Source of the DNA: Edaphobacter sp.
GTDB lineage: Bacteria; Acidobacteriota; Terriglobia; Terriglobales; Acidobacteriaceae
NCBI GenBank assembly: GCA_035656355.1
Contig: DASRSR010000194.1
Span: 2,691 to 66,690 of the forward strand
Direction: 5' to 3'
Length of the DNA stretch: 64,000 bases
Shown here: positions 4,185-60,529 of the stretch, one piece after another
Layout of the letters: every line of letters starts with the position of its first letter
How positions within the stretch are numbered: position 1 is the first letter of the stretch
Translations under genes and position numbers: made by a program
The notes under the pieces: generated by a model
Database searches by the model: none
What the model was told of the DNA's origin: nothing
Seen by the model: the letters and a program-made list of their open reading frames with translations, nothing else

Positions 4185-4245
4185 AGAGAGCAGAGAATAC
4201 ATCTGAAGTGGGAATAGCATCTAAAGTCGCTTTGTTAACAAGTTA

Positions 4246-4427
4246 TTTACGGCATGGCTGACGAAAGTGCTGAAAAGTCTGTTCGGACTGAGGAGCGTAC
4301 TTCAGGGGCTAAAGCCCCATTGCAAACAGTCACTTCGGCATCCTTCGACTTTGCTCAGGACAGGCTTTAAAGCCGTGCCCTTAACAAATCTAGATTTTTC
4401 CGCACTCTTGAAGCCATGCCCTTAACG
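4246..4427. repeat. Nested REP/MITE composite (family A palindrome split by a TIR-bounded unit that holds further REP units)
   Basis: Outer TTTACGGCATGGCTGA...AAGCCATGCCCTTAAC; imperfect TIRs at 4264-4280 and 4392-4408; inner CAGGGGCTAAAGCCCC and CCTTCGACTTTGCTCAGGACAGGCT. Confidence 0.8.
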
Positions 4428-4452
4428 AAAGTCGATTTAAAAGAAAAGTCCC

Positions 4453-27159: not shown

Positions 27160-27264
27160 CGTTGTTTCTATAAGTTCATTATATCAATCGAGTCAAGCGT
27201 GGCGAATAGGAACCAGATTAAAGACAAGAAATCAGGAGTGCCTGTTGAAGGCCTCGAATGCACC

Positions 27265-27328
27265 CTCAGGGGCTAAAGCCCCATTTTAGGCAACAACTTT
27301 ACGGCACGGCTGAAGCCGTGCCCTTAAC
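27265..27328. repeat. REP-like repeat, family A
   Basis: CTCAGGGGCTAAAGCCCC...TTTACGGCACGGCTGAAGCCGTGCCCTTAAC; also at about 4303, 38442 and 54987. Confidence 0.85.
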
Positions 27329-27348
27329 CAGGGGGCTTCATTTATAGA

Positions 27349-38221: not shown

Positions 38222-38380
38222 GCCCCATTCATCGCGGCGATGGAGTTGGTGTGATGAATGGGGGACCCAGCATTCGAGATGAGTTGAAGAAAAATACAGG
38301 GTTCCTTCGACTTCGCGCTACGCGCTTCGCTCAGGATGACGTGAGTTGAAGTTGTGAGTGGGCACAGGCCTTCGGCCCTA
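38222..38380. repeat. Cluster of REP-like repeats (families B, C and E fragments)
   Basis: CCCCATTCATCGCG..GATGAATGGGG; CCTTCGACTTCGCG..CGCTCAGGATGAC; GGCCTTCGGCCCT. Confidence 0.7.
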
Positions 38381-38415: not shown

Positions 38416-38533
38416 CTAGGGAAGCTCTGATTAAGTATTCCCTCAGGGGCTAAAGCCCGGTTCAAGTTGGGTGCTTTACGGCGTGGCTGAAGCCACGCCC
38501 CTTCAAAACAAAGACTTATTAGAGTCTCCCTAG
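38416..38533. mobile_element. 110-bp MITE with IS5-like ends and CTAG target duplication, carrying a family A REP
   Basis: CTAG|GGAAGCTCTGATTAAGT...ACTTATTAGAGTCTCC|CTAG. Confidence 0.65.
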
Positions 38534-53839: not shown

Positions 53840-54037
53840 GCGCGCTTTCAGCGCTTGTACTTGTATAGGTTAGTCCCTGGGGTTTCGCGCCATTGGCGCT
53901 TACGGCTGTACTGGTTTGGTGGTTTGTTCATTCCCACCCATCGCGACGATGATGCTGTCGCGATGAATGGGGCATCCGGGCAGGAGTGGGATTAAAGACC
54001 AATGCAGATCCTCCCGCCTTCGGCGGAAAGATGACAA
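53840..54037. repeat. REP cluster (families E, B and C)
   Basis: CGCGCTTTCAGCGCT; CCCACCCATCGCGACGATGATGCTGTCGCGATGAATGGGGCATCCGG (53933-53979); GCAGATCCTCC..AAGATGACAA (54004-54037). Confidence 0.75.
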
Positions 54038-54830: not shown

Positions 54831-55051
54831 GCGCGCTTTCAGCGCTTCGATTGGTGCGGTGTCGTGTACCTGGGGCTGCGCCCCAGGCTGGTATAAAACG
54901 GGCCTTCGGCCCTAAAAGACGAGCAAATATCTGTCAGGAAAATTGCTCAATGGAATTGAAAAAGCGTCGGTCAGTAAGAACTGTTCCTCAGGGGCTAAAG
55001 CCCCATTGGTTTTTCTCCTGGCTGCGGCACGGCTGAAGCCGTGCCCTTAAC
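54831..55051. repeat. REP cluster (families E and A)
   Basis: GCGCGCTTTCAGCGCT..CCTGGGGCTGCGCCCCAGG..GGGCCTTCGGCCCT; CTCAGGGGCTAAAGCCCC..CGGCACGGCTGAAGCCGTGCCCTTAAC. Confidence 0.8.
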
Positions 55052-55204
55052 GAGAGATGTAAGTGAGACGTTAATGCCTATAGCTCAGGTCGCTGGGCTA
55101 GGTGTTCTTAACGAGAGGGGCTCAAGCAAAACATTAGTGGCACGGCTGAATTGAAAGCTGTAAAGCACCAAACTTTTCAATATCGCTAAAACGAGGAGGA
55201 TTGA

Positions 55205-57886: not shown

Positions 57887-60529
57887 ATGCCTCTGTACTG
57901 CGATGTTGCGCTGCCGGTTTCTTTGGACCAGACATTTACCTATGCGGTGAATGGAGTGGTTCCAGCGGTTGGCGCGCGTGTGCTGGTGCCGTTCAGCGGG
58001 CAGCGGCTGATGGGCGTTGTGCTGCGTGTGCATGACGATACGCCGAACGAGTCGTTTGAGATAAAGCCGGTTCAGCAGGTACTGGATGACGCGGCGCTGT
58101 TGCCGGATGAATTGACGGAACTGGCGCGCTGGATTGCGGCGTACTATGTGGCTCCGCTGGGTGAGGTGCTGCGCGGGATGCTGCCGCTTGGCGCTGAGGT
58201 GAAGCGGCACTTCGTCTACAGGATTTCCGATGTTGGCCGGCGCGTTCTTTATGAAGGCGCGGCGAAGGGAGCTTCGCGGCGGTCGAAGTTGTCTGCAGAG
58301 GAGCAGAACCGCGAATATGCGGTGCTGAATTATCTGGAGACCGGAGATACCGCGAAGATGTCGGCGCTGCGCTCGGCAACGGGAGCGAATAAGACGCTAT
58401 TGGAAGGCATGGTCCGGAAGAAATGGCTGACGCGCGAGGCGGTGGCCGAGGAGCGGGATGCGCGGCGGCTGGAGAAGGTGGCCGTCATTCAGGGAACAGG
58501 AAGCAGGGAACAGGGAACAGAAGAACAAAAACACGACCTCCGCTTGGCGAAGGATGACAAGTCAAAATCCGGCTCTCTGGGGCCGCGATTGCCGAAGCTG
58601 AATGAGAATCAGTTGGCGATTATGGGGGAGCTTGCGGCGGTGGGTGGACGGATGCGCGTGCGCGATCTTCGGCAGACGTTGACGTCTGTGCCGGAGTCCA
58701 CGTTGGCGACGCTGGTGAAACGTGGGTTGGTAGCGATTGAGGAGGTTGCGCGCGAGTTCTGGATGGGGGGAGTAGGTGTGGAGGAAGATGTCGGCTCTGC
58801 CCACCTTAGCGACGATGAAGCCATCGCGAAGATGGGGTATCCGGTGCACCGTCTTCGGAAAAAGCATGCGCATGAGCACGCATTGAATGAGGCCCAGATG
58901 GAGGCGCTGAGCACGATTGCGGCGGCGATGTCGAAGAGCGGGTTTGCGCCACATCTGCTGTATGGCGTGACGGGTTCGGGCAAGACGACGGTTTATTTTG
59001 CAGCGATGCAGCGGGCGCTTGAGGCAGGCAAATCGGCTTTATTGCTGGTGCCGGAGATCGGACTGACTCCCGCGATGACAGGACAATTGGTCGCGGCGTT
59101 TGGCGGTGAGGTGGCATTGCTGCATTCGCAACTGACACCGGATGAGCGTGCCGAACAGTGGCACAGGATTCGGCGGGGCGAGGCACGCGTTGTGGTTGGG
59201 ACGCGGTCGGCTGTGTTTGCGCCAATGCCGAAGCTGGGATTGATCATCGTCGATGAAGAGCACGATGGAAGCTATAAGCAGGAGGAGACTCCGCGCTATC
59301 ACGGGCGTGATGTCGCGGTGATGCGGGCTAAGCTGAACAATGCTGTTGTTGTGCTGGGTTCGGCAACGCCCTCGCTTGAGAGCTGGGCGAACGCGGAGAA
59401 GGGCCGTTATGTGCGAGTGGAGATGCGGCAGCGAGTTGCGGACCGTCCATTGCCGGCGGTAGAGCTTGTGGATATGCGCGAGGAGTTTCGAGAGACGGGG
59501 CAGGAGCATATCTTTTCGCGCAGATTGATTGAGGAGACGCAGGCGACGCTGGACCGCGGAGAGCAGGCGATTGTTCTGCTGAACCGGCGCGGATACTCGT
59601 TTGTGGTGATGTGCCGAAGCTGCGGCGCGAAGATTGAGTGTGAAAACTGTGCGATCTCGATGACGTATCACAAGCCGGTGAGCGGCAATGACGCCATCGC
59701 GCAGCCGGGGCAGCGGCTGGAGTGCCATTATTGCGGGTACAGACGCGGAGTGCCGAAGAACTGTCCGAAGTGCGGGAGTGAGCATTTGTATTTTCTCGGC
59801 GCAGGTTCGCAGCAGGGCGAAGAGCGGCTGCAGGAGATATTTCCTTCAGCACGCATCGGTCGCATGGACCGCGATACTGTGCGTGGACGCAGCGATATGG
59901 AACGTTTGCTGTCGCGGCTCCATGCGGGCGAGATTAATCTGCTGGTTGGAACACAGATGATCGCCAAAGGACACGATATTCACGGGGTGACTCTGGTGGG
60001 TGTTGTCGGAGCTGACTTCGCACTCGGACTGCCAGATTTTCGCGCGGCGGAGAGAGTGTTTCAACTTTTGACGCAGGTTTCAGGCAGAGCGGGCAGAGGT
60101 GAGCTGCCGGGTAAGGTGCTGGTGCAGACCTATCATCCGGACCACTATGCGATTCAGTTTGCAGCGAAGCATGATTATCCGGGGTTTGTCGCGAAGGAGA
60201 CACAGTACCGGCGATGGATGCACTATCCTCCGTATTCCGTGCTGGCGAATGTGTTGATCCAGAGTGAGAAGCTGGAGGAAGCGACGGGATGGTCGGCAGC
60301 GCTGGGGGGGTGGTTTGAGCGGGCACGACTGGACAAGGTCCGCGTGCTTGGCCCAGCGGCTGCGCCAATTTCAAGACTGAAGCGAATTTATCGCTACCAC
60401 TTTGTGCTGAAGGCGGAGCGCAGACAGACGCTCAGCGAAGTATTGCGTGCAATGCTGCAATACGCGGAGACACAGGGCATTGCACGCCGCAATCTGATTG
60501 TCGACGTTGATGCCGTACATCTGATGTGA
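57887..60529 (+). CDS. priA: Primosomal protein N' (replication restart helicase)
   Basis: FTYAV, GARVLVPF, GVTGSGKT, DEEHDGSYKQ, Cys-rich Zn motifs, GTQMIAKG, QVSGRAGRG. Confidence 0.96.
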   Translation: MPLYCDVALPVSLDQTFTYAVNGVVPAVGARVLVPFSGQRLMGVVLRVHDDTPNESFEIKPVQQVLDDAALLPDELTELARWIAAYYVAPLGEVLRGMLPLGAEVKRHFVYRISDVGRRVLYEGAAKGASRRSKLSAEEQNREYAVLNYLETGDTAKMSALRSATGANKTLLEGMVRKKWLTREAVAEERDARRLEKVAVIQGTGSREQGTEEQKHDLRLAKDDKSKSGSLGPRLPKLNENQLAIMGELAAVGGRMRVRDLRQTLTSVPESTLATLVKRGLVAIEEVAREFWMGGVGVEEDVGSAHLSDDEAIAKMGYPVHRLRKKHAHEHALNEAQMEALSTIAAAMSKSGFAPHLLYGVTGSGKTTVYFAAMQRALEAGKSALLLVPEIGLTPAMTGQLVAAFGGEVALLHSQLTPDERAEQWHRIRRGEARVVVGTRSAVFAPMPKLGLIIVDEEHDGSYKQEETPRYHGRDVAVMRAKLNNAVVVLGSATPSLESWANAEKGRYVRVEMRQRVADRPLPAVELVDMREEFRETGQEHIFSRRLIEETQATLDRGEQAIVLLNRRGYSFVVMCRSCGAKIECENCAISMTYHKPVSGNDAIAQPGQRLECHYCGYRRGVPKNCPKCGSEHLYFLGAGSQQGEERLQEIFPSARIGRMDRDTVRGRSDMERLLSRLHAGEINLLVGTQMIAKGHDIHGVTLVGVVGADFALGLPDFRAAERVFQLLTQVSGRAGRGELPGKVLVQTYHPDHYAIQFAAKHDYPGFVAKETQYRRWMHYPPYSVLANVLIQSEKLEEATGWSAALGGWFERARLDKVRVLGPAAAPISRLKRIYRYHFVLKAERRQTLSEVLRAMLQYAETQGIARRNLIVDVDAVHLM
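58490..58560 (+). repeat. In-frame heptamer tandem plus family C REP remnant inside priA
   Basis: CAGGGAA CAGGAAG CAGGGAA CAGGGAA, then CCTCCGCTTGGCGAAGGATGACAA. Confidence 0.65.
58800..58844 (+). repeat. In-frame family B REP palindrome inside priA
   Basis: CCCACCTTAGCGACGATGAAGCCATCGCGAAGATGGGGTATCCGG; about 38/47 identical by hand to intergenic 53933-53979. Confidence 0.8.

Follow-up and report, generated by a model that had tools for sequence, protein, structure and literature searches.

The question raised by this locus is how a short palindromic repeat, of a type met mostly between genes, came to be read as part of a replication-restart helicase, and whether the protein gains anything from it. 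The locus lies in a window of 64,000 nucleotides (the whole stretch analyzed, from contig DASRSR010000194.1 of assembly GCA_035656355.1), which derives from a metagenome assembly of an Edaphobacter-like acidobacterium. The repetitive extragenic palindromes (REPs), bacterial interspersed mosaic elements (BIMEs) and inverted REP doublets (REPINs) of E. coli and Pseudomonas are classically extragenic. An earlier note on this DNA had proposed that a REP is translated in frame inside priA, and that such repeats add peptide segments to core proteins in this lineage. The features concerned, with the repeat named REP-A here, are the following.

57887 to 60529, plus strand: priA, replication-restart helicase, an intact open reading frame (ORF) of 880 aa without stop or frameshift.
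58490 to 58582, plus strand: hypervariable region 1 (HVR1) of priA, residues about 203-232.
58751 to 58856, plus strand: long linker allele (cassette) of priA, R289-R324, reading REFWMGGV-GVEEDVGS-(REP-A)-VHRLR.
58800 to 58844, plus strand: copy of REP-A (imperfect palindrome, 45 nt), which in the priA frame gives (A)HLSDDEAIAKMGYP, residues 305-319.

We conclude with good confidence that the segment at 58800-58844 is a true copy of REP-A, a dispersed 45-nt imperfect palindrome, and that its in-frame read-through is tolerated in a linker of PriA. The bases at these positions are CCCACCTTAGCGACGATGAAGCCATCGCGAAGATGGGGTATCCGG, exactly as the earlier note had quoted them. Within the 880-aa ORF they lie in sense orientation and fill exactly 15 codons, encoding A305-HLSDDEAIAKMGYP-319, and the peptide ends 13 residues ahead of the LNEAQ motif. 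The palindrome was originally recognized by its likeness to two intergenic repeats of the same window.

53933 to 53979, plus strand: intergenic REP-A copy of a diverged subfamily (hairpin of -25.2 kcal/mol, z = -2.1; E = 1.3e-8 against the family profile).
38224 to 38268, plus strand: intergenic REP-A-like hairpin, more diverged (families D4 and D8; -28.9 kcal/mol, z = -4.0).

For the first of these, an alignment at about 38/47 had been claimed, and a hand alignment gives 36-38 matches over 47 positions; the second, reported at 38222, proved to be a relative too, though a more diverged one. When both intergenic copies were used as seeds of a profile, the priA segment was matched at E = 4.6e-3 in 1.66 Mb, and the only better non-seed matches were an intergenic copy (L038) and the copy within the priA gene of another locus (L082). 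The same profile also recovered the orthologous segments in two related priA genes.

The family was defined by a pattern scan of public metagenome contigs, with a pattern that covered both the priA copy and the copy at 53933 and left 15 of the 45 positions free. REP-A was present in at least 120 metagenome stretches, and the consensus of 103 unique copies is CCCACCTTAGCGACGATGAAGCCGTCGCGAAGATGGGGCACCCGG. Conservation exceeds 90% per position, including the 15 positions that the pattern left free, and drops to background level right outside the 45 nt. The copy in priA differs from this consensus at three of 45 positions, and the family ends coincide with 58800 and 58844. In so uniform a family, the copy at 53933 stands as a relative but not as the best reference for the priA segment. 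A profile built from 106 metagenome copies matches the window at 58798-58845 with E = 4.6e-15, a match well beyond chance. Independently of this, contigs from four soil metagenomes stack on 58798-58845 alone, and the sequence to either side of the stack is unrelated. Depth over this interval climbs from 6-8 to 50-600 in two runs, and loose contig ends fall at 58798/58800 and at 58837/58844/58845 in the four metagenomes. Contigs of further runs (X5, X6, X7 and X9) gave more repeat pile-ups and added nothing else.

A chance or compositional likeness, or a chimeric assembly, might be suspected because the window holds just two intergenic relatives, with 76% ungapped identity, and was itself assembled from a metagenome. 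However, the E-value was obtained with an independent profile, a contig from the source run itself spans 58300-59289 with zero differences to the window, and four independent assemblies carry the same insert in frame. We consider the likelihood of this explanation negligible and have rejected it on the strength of the independent profile and the identical source-run contig.

REP-A is abundant in the DNA of soil and peat Acidobacteriaceae, and most of its copies fall outside Pfam-supported ORFs. The consensus folds into a hairpin whose three helices comprise 13 bp, at -18.9 kcal/mol compared to -14.4 kcal/mol for the priA copy, which is no better than shuffled sequences. In diverged subfamilies from other Acidobacteriaceae genera, the termini TCCCACCC ... 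GGATGGGGCACCC are kept while the inner stems are swapped but remain self-complementary, the pattern that would be expected if the hairpin matters. No match was found in Rfam at E ≤ 1, nor was the sequence found in the literature searched.

The gene that carries the copy is intact and complete in its domains, and the concern that priA might be a pseudogene was not borne out. In the uninterrupted product, PriA_3primeBD, DEAD/ResIII, Helicase_C and PriA_C all score above their Pfam cut-offs, whereas the Cys-rich Zn_ribbon_PriA scores 25.0, just below its cut-off of 26. The protein has the 3'-binding domain, the helicase lobes with the Cys-rich region and the C-terminal domain of PriA, and its nearest relatives are Edaphobacter PriA proteins, with 82-88% identity. 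Klebsiella PriA (4NL4) is alignable only to residues 6-197 and 333-877. The approximately 135 residues in between (198-332) of the acidobacterial protein are without an equivalent in the PriA of Klebsiella or E. coli. They include a winged-helix-like unit at residues 236-287, and nothing else in the N-terminal half was modelled confidently by AlphaFold2. This model, built from 43 close homologues, was poor overall (mean predicted local distance difference test, pLDDT, of 52.9; predicted template modelling score, pTM, of 0.35) and was therefore used solely to contrast residues 236-287 with 288-332. The former have a pLDDT near 80, while 204-235 and 288-332, both hypervariable, stay below 50, which is consistent with, and only weakly suggestive of, flexible linkers on either side of the unit. 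The REP-A copy is placed in the linker that joins this extra winged-helix-like domain to helicase lobe 1.

The other hypervariable stretch, HVR1, is built from repeats. It contains in-frame tandem heptanucleotides of the GGGAACA type (58490-58527), where relatives have GGGCTTA or CAGGGAT as the unit, followed by CTCCGCTTGGCGAAGGATGACAAG (58537-58561), a decayed '..AQDD..' module; the '..LAQDDNSK..' form of this module matches the 3' end of an intergenic repeat at 38300-38345. Among 120 PriA orthologues, HVR1 ranges from 4 to 58 aa. Metagenome depth spikes at 58470-58537, and near-identical strains are devoid of 62-107 nt of the region (58521-58582 in X2, 58483-58589 in X3). Slippage of the heptamers would break the frame unless three units changed at once.

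How the copy entered the linker can be approached from its alleles. The 106-nt long allele that holds REP-A corresponds to a short allele of 34 nt. Contigs from two soil metagenomes other than the source of the window (X2 and X4), with flanks 97.6-98.8% identical to it, carry GAAGATTTTCATCTGGGTGGGGTGGGAACACATG, which reads EDFHLGGVGTHG, instead of 58751-58856; long and short alleles thus coexist among very close strains. In a codon alignment with L083, L088 and L058, 36 codons (58751-58856 plus two bases) take the place of 12, a net gain of 24 aa. The clean indel of about 15 aa that had been anticipated in sister taxa was therefore found as an indel but not in that size, and the upstream flank differs as well (REFW in the long allele, EDFH in the short one).

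Among the 120 closest PriA proteins, 111 have the short form, ...AEDFH(M/L/F)GGV(G/A)(A/S)HG-KKHAHEHALNEAQ. A long-A form, ...REFWMGGVGVEE..SAHLSDDEAVAKMGHPV.R.RKKHAHEH, is present in three (the window, P0002 and P0005) and a long-B form, ...REFWMGGL..ADSSAALRNDKQ...RKK (QEFR in P0009), in five. The remaining one (P0058, 878 aa) has a different long allele of hypervariable region 2 (HVR2), GVVEEKADPSLPLQDDKRKSGGAFR, and keeps the ancestral VFHFGGV flank. The short allele was also found in all 22 loci that could be parsed out of 80 related ones, outgroup genera included. The segment, whose presence in distant PriA orthologues from REP-free genomes would by the earlier note have refuted the idea, is missing from those 111 close orthologues, from the parsed outgroup Acidobacteriaceae and from Klebsiella PriA. 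By this distribution, the short allele is ancestral and the long allele derived.

Four independent assemblies (the window, L081, L082 and L090) contain the long-A allele, which is thus not an artefact. The fourth was reached through a protein fragment (P0124) in a search with a 101-aa query, while a protein search with a 53-aa cassette peptide returned no candidates. In L090 (GCA_037975565.1, JBBCBH010010770.1), every gene is split by pervasive indel errors of the assembly, so that the apparent frameshift of its priA is no evidence for a pseudogene. All four share an identical junction (..CTG or ..CAG followed by CCCACC), with prefix and suffix homologous though diverged. Long-A and long-B likewise share a homologous prefix, ..EF(W/R)MGG(V/L)..E(E/D).., and the suffix R.RKK, and the indels among long alleles are multiples of three. 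Neither the cassette prefix (GAGTTCTGGATGGGGGG..) nor its suffix matched anything outside priA in 2.4 Mb, and they were thus not traced to any repeat. The linker of the long-allele protein is predicted to release the tryptic peptides EFWMGGVGVEEDVGSAHLSDDEAIAK and MGYPVHR.

A second dispersed repeat, REP-B, occupies the same site in other long alleles. Its core is AAAGCAGATTCCTCCGCGGCGCTGCGGAATGACAAACAA, and the priA insert of L086 is identical at 38 of 39 nt to a site outside priA in L038. At least nine further copies outside priA were found by BLAST; REP-B forms an inverted doublet in L043 and opposes an inverted partial copy in L038. It often lies 20-70 nt from a REP-A copy (L161, L153, L150 and L160), as it does in the window.

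54005 to 54037, plus strand: intergenic module resembling REP-B (CAGATCCTCCCGCCTTCGGCGGAAAGATGACAA), which lies 26 nt downstream from the copy of REP-A at 53933.

In this genome, differing palindromic modules appear to be combined into composite arrays. At least three more families of short hairpin repeats, for example CTCAGGGGCTAAAGCCCC and CGGCACGGCTGAAGCCGTGCCCTTAAC, recur jointly, with their order unchanged, in four intergenic regions, and a match to the Acido-Lenti-1 RNA (RF01687; 44.8 bits, gathering threshold 37) lies at 54869-54913 on the plus strand, in an intergenic array of multiple hairpins.

4238 to 4438, 27261 to 27331, 38438 to 38500 and 54983 to 55150: intergenic regions with co-ordered hairpin families.

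From these arrangements a history may be proposed. REP-B would have arrived first in the tolerant linker of PriA, and REP-A would then have inserted within or next to it, in the manner of the clusters found between genes. Those insertions that kept the frame and gave a soluble loop would have been retained by selection, and homologous recombination may since have moved the alleles between lineages, or the alleles may have persisted in them. Since REP-A spans exactly 15 codons and its consensus is free of stops in four of the six frames, a ribosome can read through it and leave PriA intact. Judged by its reading frame, the copy would add a hydrophilic, acidic loop of 15 residues to the protein.

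A different history, in which the linker, as a hot spot, has recently received currently active REP-A and REP-B copies in each lineage on its own, would explain both the consensus-like cores and the scattered distribution of the long alleles. It is favored by the polyphyly of these alleles on the PriA tree, by the core of L082, which equals the family consensus exactly (L081 and L090 differ from it by one base each), and by P0058, whose ancestral FH flank marks a separate event and suggests, from its sequence, that a module of REP-B-like or AQDD type entered this site independently. However, independent hits would not produce the altered flank common to eight of the nine long alleles, nor do they account readily for four REP-A alleles with an identical junction and homologous prefix and suffix. 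We regard separate origins as rather unlikely.

PriA is not the only site at which REP-A is read through, and the claim that such repeats add peptide segments to core proteins gained support beyond the window. In L141, a Pfam-supported priA carries REP-A in frame within HVR1, where it reads SHLSDDEAIAKIGHP. In a Terracidiphilus priA (L016, 10395-10432, residues about 131-145), a copy from a different subfamily gives SHPIADEAGEWMGHS in frame and sits in an insert of approximately 30 aa, with the 3'-binding domain on one side and the winged helix on the other. Together with the linker of the window, PriA has thus been struck at three inter-domain sites in three lineages, a point that also speaks for repeated, separate insertion. 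Further, the NAD(P)HX repair enzyme Nnr of L106 and L158 has REP-A in frame within its YjeF_N domain; the alignment to a Thermotoga structure breaks at this position, where the query is about 28 aa longer. In HolA, the delta subunit of DNA polymerase III, of L204 and L205, REP-A is reversed, falls between the N- and C-terminal domains and reads PHLRDGLIVAKVG. The acidic and hydrophilic HLSDDEAVAKMGHP frame is used by four of the five independent coding insertions. ORFs spanning REP-A in L185, L187 and L207 were discarded as upstream extensions of real genes, and those in L097, L167 and L181 for want of Pfam support.

As to what the copy does in PriA, the most likely answer is that it is tolerated as a near-neutral passenger and is not an adaptation, although our confidence in its neutrality is lower than in the identity of the element. 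Several observations weigh against this view and against the proposed history. Across the priA genes of the window, L081 and L082, which are about 80% identical in DNA and close to saturation at third positions, the core has changed less in its nucleotides than any other 16-codon stretch of the gene, with four variable sites compared to a mean of 12.2, and two of its 16 third positions vary compared to a mean of 8.3. The bases directly beside it are hypervariable, and this contrast between core and flank recurs in Nnr. On a PriA tree calculated without the variable regions, the long alleles do not group together but are interspersed with short ones. Moreover, the similarity between long alleles stops at the cassette boundaries, which is not what simple recombination tracts would give, and the altered flank REFWMGG (QEFR in P0009), common to all but one of the nine long alleles, matches nothing outside priA. 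This conservation and scatter could be due to ectopic gene conversion by the many copies in the genome, to repeated re-insertion at a hot spot, to an old dimorphism that recombination has eroded, or to selection acting on the core.

The last of these would amount to exaptation, with the core kept by selection on its nucleotides, as a hairpin in mRNA or single-stranded DNA or as a protein-binding site that tunes priA, or with the peptide functional in PriA. In its favor, the core is the least variable part at all codon positions in the three alleles; in the fourth, L090, it differs by one base while the flanks are unalignable; the two Nnr genes show 42/45 (93%) identity in the core and 58-67% in the adjacent bases; and the recurrent use of the HLSDDEAVAKMGHP frame points the same way. 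However, the intergenic copies of the family are just as uniform, so that the conservation belongs to the family and not to priA. In addition, strains with flanks about 98% identical and 111 of the 120 closest orthologues manage without the insert, and three substitutions have weakened the hairpin of the window copy. Exaptation seems unlikely to us. A broader version, in which the cores in priA, holA and nnr are all more than passengers, the dimorphism is maintained across Edaphobacter species, and a hairpin or binding site within replication genes ties their expression or local DNA handling to the machinery that recognizes the repeats, is more unlikely still; if true, such cores would connect REP biology functionally with replication restart.

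Two other origins were considered and rejected. The REP-A family might have arisen from a fragment of priA, an idea to which the priA copies, nearer to the family consensus than the intergenic copies of the window, lend some color. Against it stand the short allele, ancestral in every parsed outgroup, the many subfamilies in other genera with differing inner stems and the same termini, and more than 100 copies in unrelated contexts, so that this direction is very improbable. An intein or intron was dismissed on size, as the insert has 15 aa (24 net) whereas an intein has at least 130 aa, and on the lack of any Rfam intron in the window.

How REP-A relates to known repeats can now be considered. 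The earlier note took REPs to be extragenic, a view outdated since Di Nocera et al. (2013, PMC3733652) described REPs located within genes of Opitutus, Thauera, Xanthomonas and other free-living bacteria. Many of the REPs in that study occur in genes for replication and repair (uvrA, uvrB, recB, dnaE2 and the UvrD/Rep helicases), sometimes at several sites per gene. Like the GTAG/CGTC REPs described there, REP-A is short, palindromic and mostly intergenic, with a minority of copies read through as inserts of about 15-30 aa. The hosts differ, being PriA at three sites, HolA and Nnr, and PriA is not mentioned in PMC3733652. Nor are acidobacterial REPs, the sole mention of an acidobacterium there being the TIR-transposase genes of Koribacter. 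The dimorphism of long and short alleles at the strain level and the presence of two repeats at one site are likewise features of the REP-A case that are not described in that study. The GTAG/CGTC tag is lacking at the ends of REP-A, which are CCCACC and CACCCGG, and CGTC occurs only within the inner stem.

The earlier note drew a parallel with Rickettsia palindromic elements (RPEs), classic cases of in-frame palindromic repeats (Ogata et al. 2000; review PMC10969869). Both are palindromic, lie in frame in unrelated housekeeping genes, are compatible with the fold, contain few stop codons and use one frame repeatedly. RPEs are elements of about 100-150 bp in obligate intracellular alphaproteobacteria, whereas REP-A has 45 nt and occurs in free-living soil Acidobacteriaceae; REP-A acts like an RPE but, by size and host, is not one.

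REP-A resembles the REP-BIME-REPIN elements of E. coli and Pseudomonas in size, imperfect palindromy, high copy number, side-by-side repeat types (REP-A beside REP-B, as in BIMEs) and the inverted doublets of REP-B. It is a short palindrome whose consensus forms a stable hairpin, with many dispersed, near-identical and mostly intergenic copies. Unlike in REPINs, the REP-A pairs observed (L095, L097 and L119) are direct and not inverted. The label REP is used here in its broad sense (palindrome, size and copies) and not in the strict sense of mobilization by a REP-associated tyrosine transposase (RAYT); no RAYT gene was noticed, none having been searched for.

Bacterial MITEs (miniature transposable elements with inverted repeats; ERIC, BOX, Correia and Nezha; PMC10969869) are also small non-autonomous repeats that can enter ORFs and be translated. 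However, they have terminal inverted repeats derived from insertion sequences and target-site duplications, whereas REP-A is a single 45-nt hairpin, and at the priA junctions (..GGCTCTG and CCCACC on one side, ATCCGG and TGCACC on the other) there was no target-site duplication or direct repeat. Acido-Lenti-1 (RF01687), another small conserved intergenic hairpin of Acidobacteria, found in a similar multi-hairpin array, belongs to a different sequence family.

Since intragenic REPs had already been reported (PMC3733652), what is new here is the repeat family, the phylum, the host protein and the detail at the population level. The evidence is unusually clean, with the short allele present in near-identical strains, three independent sites struck in PriA, two families found at one site, and additional cases in HolA and Nnr. 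Inserts of this type make marker genes vary more in length, give rise to spurious 'hypothetical proteins' (PTLATMKPSRRWGT or PHLRDGFIVAKVG, for instance), and break metagenome assemblies within genes. For the biology of these bacteria, translated palindromic repeats are extended to free-living soil Acidobacteriaceae, with a new 45-nt family and PriA as a host, which adds to the earlier and as yet unexplained observation that intragenic REPs favor genes of replication and repair.

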